Shown: positions 2,194 to 7,978 of the stretch, piece after piece
Layout of the letters: each line of letters begins with the position of its first letter
Position numbering within the stretch: the first letter of the stretch is position 1
Virus genome (UHGV): UHGV-0068847
Reading direction: 5' to 3' (one strand)
Length of the DNA stretch: 27,295 nt
Source: a virus
Program-made: the position numbers and the translations under genes
The notes under the pieces: generated by a model
Told to the model about the DNA's origin: nothing
Database searches by the model: none
What the model saw: only the letters and a program-made list of their open reading frames with translations

Positions 2194-2660
2194 TCCCCCT
2201 TCACGCCAATGCCAGCGGCGCGGATTGCGTCGGCACATTCTTCCAGTGCAAAGTTATATTTATCAGAAACTAGCCCGTAACCTTTCGGGTACGGCGTCGG
2301 CAGCGTCACGGTCCGCGCCACCAGTTCTGCTATGCGCTTCTCTGCAATTTCCAGCTCATCCAGCAGCGCCAGCACAGTGGCAGGGTTAGCGGCGGCGATG
2401 AATTCTGCGTTGCGTTTGGCTGTCTCATCCCAAGCCATGTGGTAATCGTGATCCAACTCTTCGTGAATGCACGCTGCTGTGGAATTGGTCATGTCGAGCA
2501 ATGACTCGCTACCGACGTAAACCGCGTATGAGTGGTATCCAGACGCTCTGTCTTCACCCTCGCCGTATTCACCGTCAGTTTCGACAACATCGGACCACCA
2601 TTCGCCCTGGGTGGCTTTCTCTGCTGTTTGGCGCAGCGCCTGTTTGTTGAGTGCTGTCAT
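2190..2660 (-). CDS. Ead/Ea22-like early protein (156 aa)
   Basis: Central acidic region plus the ANPATVLALLDELEIAEKRIAEL coiled segment typical of the Ea22-like family (recalled). ATGA overlap with the upstream gene. Confidence 0.65.
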   Translation of the reverse strand: MTALNKQALRQTAEKATQGEWWSDVVETDGEYGEGEDRASGYHSYAVYVGSESLLDMTNSTAACIHEELDHDYHMAWDETAKRNAEFIAAANPATVLALLDELEIAEKRIAELVARTVTLPTPYPKGYGLVSDKYNFALEECADAIRAAGIGVKGE

Positions 2661-3733
2661 TGGGCTGCCTCCATTGCGAATGTCCCTGCTGTGATAGCCA
2701 TTGCAAGCCTTTGTGCTGCAGCTTTCTGTGCCGGAACGCTGGCAATTACCGTGGCTCTTTCTTTGCTGGCATCAGCACAAACACCATCCCATGAAGAGAT
2801 AAGGAAGAAGTCTTCCAGCTCGGTCATTGTGGCTTTTGTTACCAGTTCTTCGATCATCTGCACGATGATATGCGCAGGGCGACGCCTCAGTAGTTCCTGG
2901 ACTGCATAGCCAAACGCATTGATCATCACCGCATGGAATTGGATGTAATCTCGCTTGTATTCAGCTGGTGATACACCGTGTCGGATACCATCAATAGCCG
3001 TCAGCTTCAGCCACGCTTCCCAAAGGTCATAAATATCGCCAGTAGACAGCGCATCGTCCCCGTTACCCGCGAATTTAGCAGTTGCATCACCAACGGCCTT
3101 AAAACTAATCCAGAGGTCACTTTTTGCCGGAACCACGCTGTGTTCAAAATCGGTGATCTCGGAGAACACTGAGTGAGTGGAGAGGAATGACACCATTGTC
3201 TGGGCAACCTGATCCCTGCCGTTATAAGCCATATTTATTGCTGCAGAAGGCTTAGATACGTTGTTATTGATATCAGAGAAAAATTGCTGGCGTGTCTTCA
3301 GTGGTAGTTGCAGAGTCATCATCAAAGGTACAAACAGGGGTGTATCGTATTCTCTGCAGAACATGGTTATACCTGCACCACGATGTTGCCCATCAAAAAG
3401 TTTAATTTCTGCGTCCATTGGGAACCGAACAACGCCTACGTTTGTATTGCCGAACTCTTCAAACTCCACATGTGAAGCACAGTTACCAACCAGTGGTGGG
3501 ATGATGAAAGGCTCCTTATTTTCAGCAGCTGCCACTAGGTATTCGTAAAAATTTTTTACGCGTGATTTATTGAGTTCACGCTGAGAACGCTCAAGCGTGT
3601 GTCCGTAATTATCAGATGCCAGTACGCGGGATAGGGTTCGTCCTGGAACGTTCATCAAAAGAATAAGCGTATCCCCCTGCAAGCCGCGAGAGGCAGGGAA
3701 CTCGAAGTAATACTCCATACTCGATTTGCTCAT
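2657..3733 (-). CDS. DGQHR-domain protein (DndB-like, ParB/Srx-fold), 358 aa
   Basis: Literal FDGQHRGAG motif, preceded by ERSQRELNKSRVKNFYEYL and PFIIPPLV, and followed by FSDINNNVSKPS. This arrangement matches the DGQHR/DndB family. ATGA overlaps at both ends. Confidence 0.85.
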   Translation of the reverse strand: MSKSSMEYYFEFPASRGLQGDTLILLMNVPGRTLSRVLASDNYGHTLERSQRELNKSRVKNFYEYLVAAAENKEPFIIPPLVGNCASHVEFEEFGNTNVGVVRFPMDAEIKLFDGQHRGAGITMFCREYDTPLFVPLMMTLQLPLKTRQQFFSDINNNVSKPSAAINMAYNGRDQVAQTMVSFLSTHSVFSEITDFEHSVVPAKSDLWISFKAVGDATAKFAGNGDDALSTGDIYDLWEAWLKLTAIDGIRHGVSPAEYKRDYIQFHAVMINAFGYAVQELLRRRPAHIIVQMIEELVTKATMTELEDFFLISSWDGVCADASKERATVIASVPAQKAAAQRLAMAITAGTFAMEAAQ

Positions 3734-3984: not shown

Positions 3985-4148
3985 GGCGTTTTACCTTTAC
4001 GTTCCTGTTCCAGTTGCACCAGAGACTCTTTTAATGCTGCGAACGTAGTGTCCAGTCTGGTGGCGACTTCGCGCATAAGCGGTGCATGCTTTGGTGGCAA
4101 TTCAGCAACGGAGGCAAAAGCCTCCGCTACGAGTTCTTTTACCTTCAT
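3981..4148 (-). CDS. Hypothetical 55-aa protein (below the track cut-off)
   Basis: Hand translation gives MKVKELVAEAFASVAELPPKHAPLMREVATRLDTTFAALKESLVQLEQERKGKTP. It exactly fills the gap between two genes, with ATGA overlaps at both ends. Confidence 0.5.
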   Translation of the reverse strand: MKVKELVAEAFASVAELPPKHAPLMREVATRLDTTFAALKESLVQLEQERKGKTP

Positions 4149-4684
4149 GCGGCACATTGGCGCTGCTCCATCAACTCATTAAAGCGATTTATGAACATGC
4201 CGTATGACTGGCCTGGACGAACTGGGTTGATGATGAATAGGTCCGTCGGGACAACGCCATTGAGGCATGGCCACACGGAACCTTCGTCAATTTCAAAATC
4301 GCGGCGTTCGCTGGCGAGCATCACCAGATCGGCATATTTCACGGTTGGGTGTTGCTCCATAGGAAGGCCAAATTTCTGGCGAATAGCAGCGTCTACGCGA
4401 GCTTCGATCACCTGGTAATCCGGTAACAGGCGCTTAAGCGGTGAGGGGATATCCTGCAGGTATGCTTCGGCGGCATCATGAAGCAGTGCTTCTAATGCAA
4501 ACTCCTGCGGAACGAGATGGCTGGTTAAAACGCTATGCTGGCCGACGCTGTAAAACTCAGGAAGATGCCCAGCAAAGCGGCAGATATGAGACAACGCGGT
4601 AGCGATATCTTCGATCACGATATCGTCCTGTTGGATATCGAGGTAATTAAAATGTTTGCCGGATAATGTCTGAATGTAGCTCAT
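4145..4684 (-). CDS. yfdR: HD-domain phosphohydrolase, YfdR-like 5'-deoxynucleotidase (179 aa)
   Basis: H...HD...D pattern (LSHICRFAGH, ALLHDAAEAY, DLVMLASERRD). The ATG at 4684 is preceded by GGAGAAAACC. Size and motifs match the recalled CPS-53 YfdR. Confidence 0.82.
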   Translation of the reverse strand: MSYIQTLSGKHFNYLDIQQDDIVIEDIATALSHICRFAGHLPEFYSVGQHSVLTSHLVPQEFALEALLHDAAEAYLQDIPSPLKRLLPDYQVIEARVDAAIRQKFGLPMEQHPTVKYADLVMLASERRDFEIDEGSVWPCLNGVVPTDLFIINPVRPGQSYGMFINRFNELMEQRQCAA

Positions 4685-4776
4685 GGTTTTCTCCATATTG
4701 GCGCGCTGCACCGCGCAGATTTTGGTTGCACGAATCCCTCGCCGGTTGGCGATAATTAATGGAATTACGCTTCAAT

Positions 4777-4812: not shown

Positions 4813-5640
4813 TTAGGCTTTAAAGTTACCGATGAAAGTTTCCACTGATTCACCGTCGAACTTGCTGATCAGCAAATCGCGGAATTCGTTGGCGATCTCT
4901 TCTTCCTGGGCTTCAAGTTGGATGATGCGCAGAACAAAGCAGGGTTCATCGCTGGTCAGCAGGCTGTTACGCAAGCTAAAGCGGCGTTCGCCCAGACCTT
5001 CATACGGCACACATTTGAACTCGAATGCCACAGGCATTACGTCTTTGCTGCTTGCTTCAACGCTTTGCATCAGGGATTTTTTACCAGCGAAATCACTAGT
5101 TTCATGGTCCTGCTGGGTTGCTTGTTGAATGGTGATACGACGCACTGCCTGAGCCGCCTGGGAAATCTGCATCGTATTACCATCGGCATCAAACGCCAGC
5201 AGGTAATCACTCCAGTCTTCCAGCCATTCAGCAATTTGCTTTTGCTTCAGACGTTGACCATCGATCTGCAGTAACGCGCGGAACGGGGCGGTTTTCTTCA
5301 GGGTGATTGAAGCAACGTTATCGGCGTGACCGGGATTATCCAGGGTGCCGATGTTGAACACTGAACGGGCGGTCATATTGTCAGCGTCAATGAAGCAACG
5401 AGCTGGCTCACTGTCGCTGGCGTAACCTTTAGAATAACGTGCGAAGTCGTCAATACTGGTTGTGGTCATTGCGCCACGAAAGCGGAAACGCTCCAGAGAA
5501 AAGCGCTCAAGGCTTTCAACGCCAGTACCATCTGGCAGCAATGCGGTCGGGCAAGCCAGGCCATGAATATCATTCAGGTGATAACCTGAAAGAACCAGGT
5601 CTTTGACCTGCTTGAAGGTACCGCTGTCTAACTGAGACAT
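4813..5640 (-). CDS. yfdQ: YfdQ-like DUF2303 family protein (275 aa)
   Basis: Long clean ORF with an AGGA SD 6 nt upstream. Family assignment is from recall of the CPS-53 yfdP-yfdQ-yfdR order and size (about 274 aa). Confidence 0.8.
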   Translation of the reverse strand: MSQLDSGTFKQVKDLVLSGYHLNDIHGLACPTALLPDGTGVESLERFSLERFRFRGAMTTTSIDDFARYSKGYASDSEPARCFIDADNMTARSVFNIGTLDNPGHADNVASITLKKTAPFRALLQIDGQRLKQKQIAEWLEDWSDYLLAFDADGNTMQISQAAQAVRRITIQQATQQDHETSDFAGKKSLMQSVEASSKDVMPVAFEFKCVPYEGLGERRFSLRNSLLTSDEPCFVLRIIQLEAQEEEIANEFRDLLISKFDGESVETFIGNFKA

Positions 5641-5696: not shown

Positions 5697-6068
5697 TCAC
5701 TGTGCCGCTTTAAGCTTTCCATCCACCGCGCCAGTGATCCCGAACAGCTGACCCTGATCTTCCTGCAGGATGGTTAGCTTCCCGCCTTTGTTGACCCACA
5801 TCGGGGTTTCGGTTGTGTCCTCTTCGGAGGCTTTACCACGCGGTGTCGGGGTGCTGTAGTTCAGCTTGTGCTTGATCTTCACGCGCTTCTCTTCAACGGA
5901 ATTACCCATACGCTCAAAATCAAATGTGAGGACTACTTTGCCTTTGTTGCCGTTGTTCAGAACGCCAAGCGCGGTAGTATTAAGTGCTGCCGCGATTTTG
6001 TTCATGAACACGCCGGCATCCAGTTCGCCAAGAAAATCTGGCACTACGGTCATGCGGTCATTACTCAT
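5697..6068 (-). CDS. Hypothetical early protein, positionally YfdP-like (123 aa)
   Basis: Clean ORF with a GAGGG SD 7 nt upstream. First sizeable gene of the leftward operon. The family name rests only on synteny recall. Confidence 0.7.
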   Translation of the reverse strand: MSNDRMTVVPDFLGELDAGVFMNKIAAALNTTALGVLNNGNKGKVVLTFDFERMGNSVEEKRVKIKHKLNYSTPTPRGKASEEDTTETPMWVNKGGKLTILQEDQGQLFGITGAVDGKLKAAQ

Positions 6069-6298
6069 GGTTTTACCCTCGTTAAGGCGGCTGCAACCGC
6101 CGAACTTTCTCCATACACAACAGAGAAGGGCACCTGCATTGGTCGGCGGCTTGCAGAGACCGCTTTCTTTTTGCCCGGGTGGATTGGGTTATGAGCCCGT
6201 CGCCCGGTGATGCCCTTTTCTGTTGTGCCTTGAAAAAGGCTGGCGGTTACCGGACAAGTGGGAAAACACCGGGCCGCCAGAATAGTGGTACAAGGCAT
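6065..6298 (-). CDS. Questionable 77-aa basic ORF in the pL leader
   Basis: Strong SD (GGTGAGGATAACAAATG) and an ATGA overlap with the next gene. However, the region is GC-rich and hairpin-dense, several frames are open on both strands, and the amino-acid composition is odd. Confidence 0.35.
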   Translation of the reverse strand: MPCTTILAARCFPTCPVTASLFQGTTEKGITGRRAHNPIHPGKKKAVSASRRPMQVPFSVVYGESSAVAAALTRVKP

Positions 6299-6343
6299 TT
6301 GTTATCCTCACCAAACGTACCAATGATTACGTTTGATGATTTA

Positions 6344-6372
6344 AATGTACCTTTAGTTACCTTTGCGGTCAA
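6344..6372 (-). promoter_or_regulatory. Candidate pL promoter
   Basis: On the minus strand: TTGACC (6372-6367), 17-nt spacer, TACATT (6349-6344). The spacer and -10 are overlapped by operator box A. Confidence 0.55.
6346..6365. promoter_or_regulatory. Operator box A (TGTACCTTTAGTTACCTTTG)
   Basis: One of three near-identical 20-mers, 19/20 identical to box C. Overlaps the pL -10 and spacer. Confidence 0.6.
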
Positions 6373-6380
6373 GCGAGTAA

Positions 6381-6400
6381 TGTACTTTATGTTACCTTTG
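6381..6400. promoter_or_regulatory. Operator box B (TGTACTTTATGTTACCTTTG)
   Basis: 18/20 identical to box C. Lies just upstream of the pL -35. Confidence 0.55.
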
Positions 6401-6448: not shown

Positions 6449-7108
6449 TTAAATGTTTTGAGTGATTTGTACAACTTTTCCGACAATGCGACAGTTACCA
6501 TCAATTTGGATTGGCTTAAATAACGGATTCAGTGGCATTAGGTATGAGTAGGGGCTATCCCAAACTAATTTTTTAACCGTTGCTTCTGATGTCCCATCCA
6601 ATATAGCAACGACTATTTTCCCATATAGATCATCAAGCTGCCCATAATGGGGCTCGACTATAACAATAGAACCTTCTGGTATAGATGGAAGTCCTTGCGG
6701 GTTAGTCATCGACTCACCGCGGACTACTAACCCAAACGCTTCATCCGATACATTTGCAGTTGTTTGAGTCCAGGAAATCACGTCTGTAAGTCTTGAGCAG
6801 GCATAGCTATCCGTCCATAAACCGGCTTGAACTGCCGATATGATCGGTACAGCTACAGGGGGTTTCAAAAAAGGCACGACGCGCGTGTCGTCAATGGCCT
6901 CATCACCGCTTCCATAGAGTATCCACTCTGGTGTTGTTGATAGAGCCTGAGCCAACTGGTGAAGGTTCTCACCATCAGGCTTTGTCGTGCCGTTTTCCCA
7001 TTTTGTAACCGATACACGGCTTACACCAAGCTTTTTAGCCAGTGCTAATTGGGTTATATCCAGCTGGATTCGTCTGGATCTGATGCGGTCTTTCATCTCT
7101 GTTTTCAT
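6449..7108 (-). CDS. cI: cI-type prophage repressor (XRE HTH plus S24 LexA-like autopeptidase), 219 aa
   Basis: N-terminal HTH (LTQLALAKKLGVSRVSVTKWENG), an Ala-Gly cleavage site (VQAGLW), the catalytic Ser in RGESM and the Lys in ATVKKL. Divergent from the cro-like gene. Confidence 0.92.
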   Translation of the reverse strand: MKTEMKDRIRSRRIQLDITQLALAKKLGVSRVSVTKWENGTTKPDGENLHQLAQALSTTPEWILYGSGDEAIDDTRVVPFLKPPVAVPIISAVQAGLWTDSYACSRLTDVISWTQTTANVSDEAFGLVVRGESMTNPQGLPSIPEGSIVIVEPHYGQLDDLYGKIVVAILDGTSEATVKKLVWDSPYSYLMPLNPLFKPIQIDGNCRIVGKVVQITQNI

Positions 7109-7127
7109 GTAACCAATGTTACACCCT

Positions 7128-7156
7128 TTGCTTGTAACTGTTGTTTGCTATTTAAT
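7128..7156 (+). promoter_or_regulatory. Candidate pR promoter
   Basis: TTGCTT (7128-7133), 17-nt spacer, TTTAAT (7151-7156). The predicted start falls inside operator box C, and GGAGG lies 5 nt upstream of the cro ATG. Confidence 0.55.
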
Positions 7157-7175
7157 GTACCTTTTGTTACCTTTG
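7156..7175. promoter_or_regulatory. Operator box C (TGTACCTTTTGTTACCTTTG)
   Basis: Third copy of the 20-mer. It abuts and overlaps the pR -10 and +1. A degenerate related sequence (GTTACACCCTTTG / GTAACCAATGTTAC) lies at 7109-7140. Confidence 0.6.
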
Positions 7176-7200: not shown

Positions 7201-7404
7201 ATGTATAAGTCCGAAGTCGTAAAGCATTTTGGCGGTATCTCTAAAACCGCTGTTGCTTTGAATATCTCACACCCTGCCGTATGTCGTTGGGGAAAGGTCA
7301 TCCCTGAGAAGCAAGCCTTCGTAATAGAGAGAATTACTAATGGGAAACTTAAGTATGACGCATCCCTATATCACAAGGTTACAGGCGTATCTGCTAACCA
7401 GTAA
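7201..7404 (+). CDS. cro: Cro-like repressor (YdaS/DUF1019-type HTH), 67 aa
   Basis: Small HTH protein (GISKTAVALNISHPAVCRWGK). It is the first gene of the rightward operon, divergent from cI, with a strong GGAGG SD. Confidence 0.85.
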   Translation: MYKSEVVKHFGGISKTAVALNISHPAVCRWGKVIPEKQAFVIERITNGKLKYDASLYHKVTGVSANQ

Positions 7405-7426: not shown

Positions 7427-7978
7427 GTGGGTAACGAACCTATTTGGAAAGTCGAACGTCAGCCAGCCTGGCTGGTAGCGGCGATAAAAAAAACGATCAC
7501 CGATCTACCTGGTGGTTATGCCGAGGCGGCGGAATGGTTGGGCGTGACAGAGAACGCATTGTTTAACCGCCTTCGTGTTGACGGCGACCAGATCTTCCCA
7601 CTGGGCTGGGCAATGGTTTTACAACGTGCTGGTGGTTCAACTCATATCGCTGATGCCGTTGCGCGCCATTCTCAGGGCGTATTTGTACCACTGGCAGATG
7701 TTGATGATCTGGATAACGCCGATATAAATCAGCGCCTGATGGAGTCCATCGAATGGATAGGCCGTCATTCGAATTTTGTACGTAAAGCCACGGCTGATGG
7801 GGTAATTGACGCAGATGAGCGTGGTCAGATTGAGGAAAACAGCTATCAGGTTATCGCTAAGTTCCAGGAGCACGTAACGCTTCTGTATCGAGTTTTTTGT
7901 GTCGCTGAAAAGAGTGACGCCCGCGAGTGTGCAGCTCCGGGCGCCTTGGCGAACAACTCTTCGAGTATGGAGAAATAA
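7427..7978 (+). CDS. CII-like regulatory protein (YmfL/CP76-like), 183 aa
   Basis: GTG start with an AAGGAG SD 6 nt upstream. Occupies the position directly after cro. The family name comes from recalled e14 synteny (cohE-croE-ymfL-ymfM-oweE). Confidence 0.65.
   Translation: MGNEPIWKVERQPAWLVAAIKKTITDLPGGYAEAAEWLGVTENALFNRLRVDGDQIFPLGWAMVLQRAGGSTHIADAVARHSQGVFVPLADVDDLDNADINQRLMESIEWIGRHSNFVRKATADGVIDADERGQIEENSYQVIAKFQEHVTLLYRVFCVAEKSDARECAAPGALANNSSSMEK

Follow-up and report, generated by a model that had tools for sequence, protein, structure and literature searches.

How do lambdoid phages that lack the N protein express their early-left operon? Many prophages of this kind reside in Escherichia coli, Shigella, Salmonella, Citrobacter and Klebsiella, and the set includes Stx2c-converting and some Stx2a-converting phages, the serotype-converting phages SfV, SfII and SfIV, and ST64B. 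The viral genome UHGV-0068847 (27,295 nucleotides; this whole stretch is hereinafter designated the window) holds the immunity region of an ST64B/SfV/LLS-type lambdoid prophage. A first-pass annotation, made from its sequence alone, singled out the leader between the early-left promoter pL and the first solid gene and offered two competing readings: a gene for a small basic regulator of 77 amino acids, or a cis-acting antitermination RNA analogous to the put sites of phage HK022. We find that the leader contains a non-coding, structured, covarying and widely conserved RNA, designated element B, which is a concrete and testable object for early-left operon expression in N-less phages. The annotation pointed at a real and interesting region, partly for wrong reasons.

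A conserved three-way-junction RNA in the pL leader

The pL leader of the window is strongly structured, as the first-pass annotation had noted. Specifically, the 281-nt leader folds at −111.9 kcal/mol, compared with −84.1 ± 4.9 kcal/mol for shuffled sequences (z = −5.73), and none of 200 shuffles folds as well. It is not unusually GC-rich, contrary to what had been stated: its GC content is 52.7% versus 51.0% for the whole window, at the 52nd percentile of segments of the same size. The dominant structure, overlooked at that stage, is a long-range 20-bp helix, P1, which closes the three-way junction of element B (Table 1).

Homologous leaders were gathered from phage records, IMG/VR and species-representative genomes, and 64 unique sequences were aligned (alignment A3). 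Element B measures 105–132 nt across the homologues and about 130 nt in the window, where the covariance model finds a single copy and none in the right operon. The helices P1, P2 and P3 vary by compensatory change, while one arm, including the tip of P2, is invariant across Enterobacterales. P3 ranges from 4 bp with a hexaloop up to about 40 nt, the window having the long form. Covariation of the homologous leaders had been proposed as a check, and it bears out the conservation of RNA pairing. Standard pairs occupy 95.6% of the paired cells, versus 41–55% when the 3′ partners are slid by 1–3 columns; ten pairs change on both sides, in 113 cells; and the covariation score is reached by none of 500 column shuffles. 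Compensatory sets include GGGCA/TGCCC versus GAGCA/TGCTC versus GAACA/TGTTC, CACAAC/GTTGTG versus CAAAAC/GTTTTG, ACAGAG/CTCTGT versus ACACAC/GTGTGT and, in P2, CCGGG/CCCGG versus CCGGA/TCCGG versus CCAGG/CCTGG.

RNAalifold alone recovers P1 and the apical hairpin of P2 and draws the inner helices differently. We prefer the P2 of Table 1, since 22 sequences show two-sided change at pair 32:56. RNAalifold also lengthens P1, by pairing the U-tract that abuts the element upstream with the invariant tail GGAGAA in 56–62 of the 64 sequences. The functional strand is the pL-sense strand, because G-U pairs are frequent and the covariance model scores the sense strand at least 50 bits higher. Specifically, model R1 gives 95–122 bits for sense and 27–48 bits for antisense sequences (40 bits for the antisense strand of the window), and the opposite-strand reading is ruled out on these grounds.

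Conservation is higher in the unpaired columns than in the paired ones (0.17 versus 0.29 bits). Helices that vary by compensation around an invariant arm are the signature of a surface for binding a conserved host machine. A mutual-information scan for additional tertiary or pseudoknot pairs, including partners of the variable loops, returned only the known helices and alignment-shift artefacts. Kissing between the P3 loop and the loop of the small hairpin 3′ of the element fits the window (CUGCAA/UUGCAG) and is inconsistent across variants. Ribozyme readings (hammerhead, hepatitis delta virus-like, hatchet) were judged unlikely: Rfam gives no match, only two A residues are left unpaired in the junction, and conservation is concentrated in an arm and not in the junction core.

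Table 1. Features of the window and of selected related loci (coordinates of the window unless a locus is named)
Feature	Position	Strand	Basis or remark
Three-way-junction RNA (element B)	6234-6105	minus, pL-sense	covariance-model match, 104.1 bits, E 1e-25
P1 helix, 20 bp	6228-6209 with 6134-6115		pair counts, RNAalifold
P2 helix, 5 bp	6207-6203 with 6179-6175		carries invariant asymmetric internal loop and apical hairpin
P2 apical hairpin GGG-CUCAUAA-CCC	6198-6186	minus	
Stretch of 14 nt, CGGGCUCAUAACCC, equal to tRNA-fMet anticodon stem-loop (metY positions 28-41)	6199-6186	minus	sequence comparison
P3 arm, variable length	6174-6136	minus	
Invariant tail GGAGAA	6112-6107	minus	can pair with terminator U-tract
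77-aa open reading frame	6065-6298	minus	judged spurious
Predicted sigma-70-like pL promoter, TTGACC-17 nt-TACATT	6372-6344	minus	promoter scan
Perfect 8-bp inverted repeat, CAAACGTA-n8-TACGTTTG	6335-6312	minus	pL transcript 5′ end
Intrinsic-terminator-like module, compound GC hairpin and U5	6280-6233	minus	sequence, fold
GCCTT/AAGGC mini-hairpin	6240-6227	minus	sequence
Small hairpin GGCGG-UUGCAG-CCGCC (GGCGGTTGCAGCCGCC)	6101-6086	minus	fold; 5 nt upstream of Shine-Dalgarno
First-gene Shine-Dalgarno GAGGG	6080-6076	minus	
YfdP/Sb37-like gene, first early-left gene, function unassigned	5697-6068	minus	list of open reading frames, PHROG 204
YfdQ/DUF2303 gene	4813-5640		leftward operon
Terminator-like hairpin AAAUCCCCGG-CGCC-GCGGGGAUUU then AUUG	4800-4777	minus	between yfdQ-like and yfdR-like genes
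YfdR-like 5′-deoxynucleotidase gene	4145-4711		leftward operon
S24/helix-turn-helix repressor gene (cI-like)	6449-7108	minus	
P22-Cro-like gene	7201-7404	plus	
CII-like gene	7427-7978	plus	22 nt beyond cro
Module A examples	L003 ~2620-2690; L007 ~1650-1715; L131	minus (L003)	
Small-RNA-like modules	L007 2287-2502 (SfV); L003 2197-2315 (ST64B); L001 2132-2268 (Flotzy)		

The overlapping open reading frame

The 77-aa open reading frame (ORF) is present as described, with a GAGGA Shine-Dalgarno sequence ahead of its ATG and an ATGA overlap with the next gene. Together with a basic stretch in the product, the good Shine-Dalgarno sequence and the overlap speak for a genuine small regulator. The homologues make this reading practically untenable. 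An in-frame TGA interrupts the conserved core in 10 of the 64 unique sequences (GGGCGAC to GGGTGAC), and the start codon is gone in near-identical relatives. The middle of the frame, which corresponds to P3, carries indels of 4, 25 and other lengths that are not multiples of three, so the frame is broken. Codon-level conservation had been named as the outcome that would favour a plain protein gene; the column entropy by codon position is 0.33/0.30/0.21, i.e., variation is lowest at the third position, the reverse of what a coding sequence would show. Neither Pfam nor PHROGs has a match for the product, and a coding constraint cannot be reconciled with the covariation of the helices. The ORF is a by-product of a stop-free stretch in a structured RNA. 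As for the competing proposal of a cis-acting RNA, its structural part holds, in that a covarying and widely conserved structured RNA covers most of the ORF, while its antitermination part stays conditional.

Coding sequences for 'hypothetical proteins' are annotated across the element, on either strand, in mEp460 (locus L008, 2421-2564), cdtI (L010, 2370-2825, minus strand) and Flotzy (L001, 1984-2178). These are probably annotation artefacts, and annotators should cease calling them.

Element B is widespread and uncatalogued

Element B occurs in 2520 of 5426 complete E. coli genomes (46%), in up to four places per genome, and is never annotated as an RNA there. It is also found in 69 phage records, with about 91% identity over a core of 55 nt. 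Among the matches listed from IMG/VR, more than 120 contigs carry it. Phages that carry it include SfV, SfII, SfIV, mEp460, cdtI, 2H10, ST64B, LLS, fifteen Stx2c-converting phages and some Stx2a-converting phages. A search with YfdQ homologues listed only relatives of at least 84% identity and did not reach divergent elements. A deliberately loose pattern, run on species-representative genomes, gave 28 true loci, 26 of them in genomes labelled as Enterobacterales genera (Escherichia, Shigella, Citrobacter, Enterobacter, Klebsiella, Kosakonia, Phytobacter, Leclercia, Atlantibacter, Mixta, Erwinia and others) and two under other labels, a Chryseobacterium sp. and a Geobacteraceae metagenome-assembled genome. 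The same pattern gave 24 chance matches, none of which is accepted by the covariance model.

Rfam 15 has no match in the window at the gathering score and none over the element at E ≤ 10, and a search of five relatives with Rfam likewise returned nothing over element B. Weak Rfam matches (AgrB, mir-1179, a snoRNA) were set aside as noise. Literature searches on yfdP leader RNAs and on the core sequence brought up no relevant paper, and the core is not printed in any of the papers searched. Element B is an uncatalogued, very widespread structured RNA family. The CPS-53 remnant of E. coli K-12 is devoid of it; since this remnant has lost cI, pL and the element together, it is uninformative for element B, and the absence from K-12 may be why the element escaped study. 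In this cryptic prophage (locus L183, 5248-5604), yfdP is preceded by a repeat-rich remnant with GATTTTGACGGGTCAGA repeats.

The tip of P2 resembles the initiator-tRNA anticodon arm

The 14-nt stretch at the tip of P2 matches the metY tRNA-fMet of E. coli at 14 of 14 nt, including three G-C pairs, the CUCAUAA loop and the CAU anticodon. The apical hairpin is invariant in every homologue save loop positions 6 and 7, even with a search pattern that leaves the hairpin free. These two positions, which correspond to tRNA positions 37 and 38, read AA, UC or UA and vary in about 30% of the unique variants; real tRNAs keep a purine at position 37. ARAGORN sees no tRNA or tRNA-like gene in the window. 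The likeness to tRNA-fMet is a real observation at the level of sequence.

A precedent for a tRNA anticodon-arm mimic in an mRNA leader is the thrS operator of E. coli. In both, the 5′ leader carries, close to a Shine-Dalgarno sequence, a hairpin modelled on the anticodon stem-loop of a tRNA. Element B differs in having no known partner, in the variable equivalents of positions 37 and 38, and in its setting in a phage early operon instead of a synthetase gene.

Element B sits behind a predicted terminator at the head of the operon

The hairpins listed by the first-pass annotation (6335-6312, 6280-6240, 6240-6227 and 6101-6086) are all where it placed them. Those it stressed lie outside the conserved element: the 5′ repeat is probably operator-like, and the compound stem is a predicted terminator. 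Specifically, the compound stem CTGGCGG...CCGCCAG (6280-6240) looks like an intrinsic terminator because a U5 tract (6237-6233) follows, giving a GC-rich hairpin and then a U-tract. A simple terminator scan missed it because the stem is compound. The U-tract directly abuts element B, and the order along the pL transcript is the 5′ inverted repeat, the terminator-like hairpin with U5, element B and a small hairpin before the first-gene Shine-Dalgarno sequence. No convincing −10 box, and hence no promoter, was found inside the junction of terminator and element.

This junction is kept in the relatives. Of 148 loci, 145 have a T-run directly before P1, and the GC hairpins ahead of it have stems of at least five unrelated kinds. 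Element B can exist only on RNA that reads past the leader terminator. Three loci are devoid of the T-run; in two of them (L090 and L146), about 25 nt separate the predicted pL start from the element, and no terminator intervenes. A same-strand S24 repressor gene ends 100–1900 nt upstream of the element in 129 of 157 loci.

Downstream, the operon opens with a YfdP-like gene in 117 loci, with an RdgC-like gene (305 aa) in 18 and with a YfdR-like gene in 10, which implies that the function of the element is generic to the operon. Sequence similarity between relatives stops right past GGAGAAAC(U/C)AAC. Thus, the element goes with the operon head rather than with any one gene. Its distance from the first early-left gene downstream is never below about 40 nt: it measures about 40 nt to the start codon of the unrelated YfdP-like and RdgC-like genes and 115–152 nt for YfdR-type genes.

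The small hairpin between the element and the first gene has a variable stem in relatives and a recurrent (U/G)(U/G)GCAG loop, which many variants also have within P3 and which likewise precedes the Shine-Dalgarno sequence of yfdR. Hairpins with this loop stand a few nucleotides before the Shine-Dalgarno sequences of several early-left genes (6086-6101 and ~4712-4727 in the window; rdgC-like and yfdR loci). Further down the pL operon, the stem-loop noted at 4800-4777 is confirmed by sequence and fold. It is conserved in SfV, mEp460, ST64B, Flotzy and phiNP, its stem covaries with those of SfV and mEp460, and in the L011-type subfamily its counterpart follows the element after 12 nt. This hairpin is a candidate target of any antitermination.

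Module A and small-RNA-like leaders in relatives

A second conserved structured RNA of about 65 nt, designated module A (ACAGCGAACAGGCAGGACGCCCACGAAGTAGCCGCC....GGCRTATGAAG.....GATGATTCG), is present in 80 of 148 element-bearing loci and absent from the window. Its position is 10–20 nt past the pL promoter, in phages of several different immunity types. Rich covariation is seen in one of its hairpins, and the closing helix covaries as well. Module A is found in more than 120 IMG/VR contigs among the matches listed, mostly without element B (40 of 45 newly fetched loci), and nothing in Rfam matches it. In its own right, module A is a candidate for a put-like RNA or a 5′-leader RNA.

Sub-threshold Rfam matches occur in the pL leaders of relatives, to STnc100 (E 1e-5) and to the 3′ half of RprA (E 0.017). 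They lie upstream of the element and not in it, and the window has neither. The corresponding modules, which resemble small RNAs (sRNAs), end at the terminator adjoining element B, which suggests that early pL termination yields sRNAs. Early termination in the late pR′ leader is known to yield sRNAs.

Comparison with put, nut and RNase III leaders

The put RNA acts in cis and without a dedicated factor, promoting terminator read-through via the zinc-binding domain of the RNA polymerase β′ subunit. Element B resembles HK022 put in being a cis-encoded structured leader RNA of a lambdoid phage without N, upstream of early genes and terminators; in L090 and L146, its position just after the predicted pL start is like that of putL. 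The architecture differs: put consists of two tandem stem-loops of about 70 nt (PMC9378689), whereas element B is a three-way junction of 105–132 nt closed by a 20-bp helix. Compared with put of HK022 and HK639, element B usually lies behind a terminator and has no second copy in the right operon. It precedes the hairpin between yfdQ and yfdR, and a terminator lies ahead of it in 145 of 148 loci, the window included. The put consensus (CGAACGG ... TCAGGATGA..GGCAATG) has no match in the window with up to three mismatches, and a comparison with putL and putR of HK022, proposed by the first-pass annotation, gives no similarity. A blastn search with putL returned 24 phage records, mainly HK022, HK75, O276, HK639 and phiEt88, plus three weak Gordonia matches, and none of the put-bearing phages (HK022, HK75, O276, HK639, phiEt88, CobraSix and others) is among the listed element-bearing records. 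Because the consensus is absent, the architecture differs and the listed phage records are disjoint, element B is not a member of the put family. The put analogy holds as a functional idea and fails as a likeness of sequence or architecture.

The annotation's statement that no lambda N homologue and no boxA are visible in the window is upheld. Pfam and PHROGs place no N-like gene among the early-left ORFs, which include YfdP-, YfdQ/DUF2303-, YfdR- and DndB-like genes, and boxA (TGCTCTTTAACAA, up to three mismatches) has 7 matches in the window versus 8.1 expected, none of them in the leader. The element-bearing phage LLS was published as lacking N, and its authors only guess 'a put-like mechanism' (PMC12315714). 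Element B shares with lambda nut its place in the pL leader and a small hairpin with a conserved loop near a pyrimidine-rich stretch; it differs in that boxA and an N gene are missing and the boxA-like stretch is paired and variable. TL-2011c, a Stx2a phage of the boxA/nut type, has the yfdP-yfdQ cluster deep in the pL operon and is devoid of the element. A hairpin GTCGTACGGCGCGAC in TL-2011c (locus L185, ~3285-3335) stands just upstream of a canonical boxA and is near-identical to stem I of put (GTCGAACGGCGCGAC in HK639, phiEt88 and CobraSix).

Comparison can also be made with two well-established lambda elements, the RNase III site in the N leader and sib/tI. As in these, element B is a large helix just before the first pL gene or built on a terminator, and the full helix forms only on read-through RNA. 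There is no homology, and an RNase III site would have no need of the invariant side arm of element B. Where RNase III sites call for a near-continuous duplex of about 20 bp or more, P1 has 20 bp, 95.7% paired, with an extension of 4–5 bp through the pairing of the U-tract with GGAGAA.

Possible functions of element B

We tentatively favour a reading in which element B is a cis-acting antiterminator, put-like in function and not homologous to put; it is a possible function more than a probable one. Element B would act in cis on the elongation complex that made it, the modified RNA polymerase would resist terminator-like hairpins and polarity further down the long early-left operon, and the element would stand in for the N protein that such phages lack. 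From the missing N gene, the chance-level boxA count and the conserved terminator-like hairpin inside the operon, we infer a need for antitermination. This reading is ranked first because it explains the host-machine-like conservation, the independence of the downstream gene, the absence of N, nut and put from the window, and the conserved downstream hairpins. Several points weigh against it. The strong predicted terminator immediately upstream of the element in 145 of 148 loci, the window included, cannot be suppressed by the element, because it lies upstream of it. SfV-type phages have ORFs and further terminators between pL and the element. A canonical boxA is found upstream in 19 of 152 element-bearing loci; thus, complementarity with nut-type systems is not strict. 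Module A, which sits at the true 5′ end of pL in 80 of 148 loci, has at least as strong a claim to be the put analogue, and because it holds the putL-like position, the case for element B as an antiterminator is weaker. Antitermination also leaves unexplained the U-tract junction, the helix of about 25 bp, the tRNA-fMet-like tip and the closeness to the start codon, and the activity is one that we infer. If element B or module A is an antiterminator, RNA-only antitermination would be common and not a peculiarity of HK022.

A close second, and still a doubtful one, is that element B is a processing or translation leader that exists on read-through RNA only, like the lambda N-leader RNase III site or sib/tI. 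The U-tract may pair with GGAGAA so that P1, about 25 bp and stacked under the terminator hairpin, forms an RNase III-type substrate whose cleavage would release the mRNA from the sRNA or leader ahead of it; P1, once formed, might also keep its pyrimidine-rich 3′ strand off the first-gene Shine-Dalgarno sequence. This reading accounts for the exact terminator junction and the start-codon spacing. It is consistent with the extension of P1 that RNAalifold draws independently, with a purine-rich strand opposite a pyrimidine-rich one over 20 bp, with a T-run that abuts the element despite unrelated terminator stems, with the spacing of about 40 nt shared by two unrelated first genes, and with the sRNA-like upstream modules of relatives (STnc100-like, RprA-like). 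In the window version as in that of SfV, removal of the 5′ strand leaves the 3′ strand of P1 to pair with the Shine-Dalgarno sequence; this pairing is not distinctive (z = −2.0 and −1.0), as any pyrimidine tract can pair. Moreover, the changes in the U-tract:GGAGAA pairing are one-sided only, none compensatory, YfdR-type first genes are spaced 115–152 nt away, and the invariant P2 arm and loops, the most conserved part of the element, are left unexplained. That arm is what an unlikely third explanation addresses, namely that P2 mimics the anticodon arm of initiator tRNA and is offered to a host factor: the 30S P site with IF3, MetRS, or, as a decoy, an anticodon nuclease such as VapC. The 14/14-nt identity, the unchanged hairpin under an unconstrained search pattern, the length of P2 from the junction (similar to an anticodon-plus-D stack) and the placement on the earliest phage transcript argue for mimicry. 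The variation at the equivalents of positions 37 and 38, the presence of only three of the five anticodon-stem pairs and the negative ARAGORN result argue against it, and the match was spotted post hoc among many possible comparisons. It is improbable, on the present comparison, that the mimic is functional on the earliest phage transcript, either recruiting or blocking the ribosome through the 30S P site with IF3 for the first early gene or serving as a VapC decoy against abortive infection. If it is, it would represent a previously undescribed type of phage RNA, carried by nearly half of the sequenced E. coli, and a new type of phage-host interaction. A nut-like site for a phage RNA-binding protein, with the (U/G)(U/G)GCAG-loop hairpins in P3, 3′ of the element and before yfdR as boxB analogues, is very unlikely. 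The loop motif is kept on covarying stems at several places in the operon, and TGCTCTTC in the 3′ strand of P1 of some variants resembles boxA. Against this, no N-like or arginine-rich conserved protein is encoded near pL, the boxA-like stretch is base-paired and not conserved (GCCCTT in the window, GTTCTT in the SfV type), boxA matches in the window are not above chance, and the loops differ (UUGCAG, UGGCAG, CUGCCA, UGUCUG).

Immunity region, pL promoter and operators

The nearest phage records to the window are Phi06_2987, LLS, Flotzy, Eeyore, phiNP and ST64B. The host of the prophage is probably Citrobacter freundii; the YfdQ protein of the window is 100% identical to a C. freundii protein. 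The predicted pL transcript start, about 6337 as first proposed, agrees with the predicted promoter. Operator-like repeats (consensus GGTAACNNNNGGTACAT) stand on both sides of cI, at 6315-6331, 6345-6361, 6380-6396, 7107-7123 and 7155-7171, so that the repeats around pL recur between cI and cro. Two copies overlap the pL promoter, 6345-6361 (perfect) and 6380-6396 (one mismatch). The 8-bp inverted repeat overlaps the most degenerate copy (6315-6331, three mismatches), 30 bp from the perfect one. It is specific to the immunity type, being common only to relatives of the same immunity such as L036, is not part of the RNA element and is probably operator-like. It may be an RNA hairpin, a degenerate third operator (OL3-type), or both.

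On the right side, the gap between cro and the CII-like gene is 22 nt, as reported. Leftward, annotated homologues of the YfdP/Sb37-like gene are present in ST64B, SfV and phiNP, and the YfdR-like gene is followed by small ORFs and a DndB-like gene. The latter encodes a 358-aa protein of the early-left operon (2657-3733, minus strand; PF14072, E 5e-47). The DndB family (PF14072) is linked to DNA-sulfur modification.

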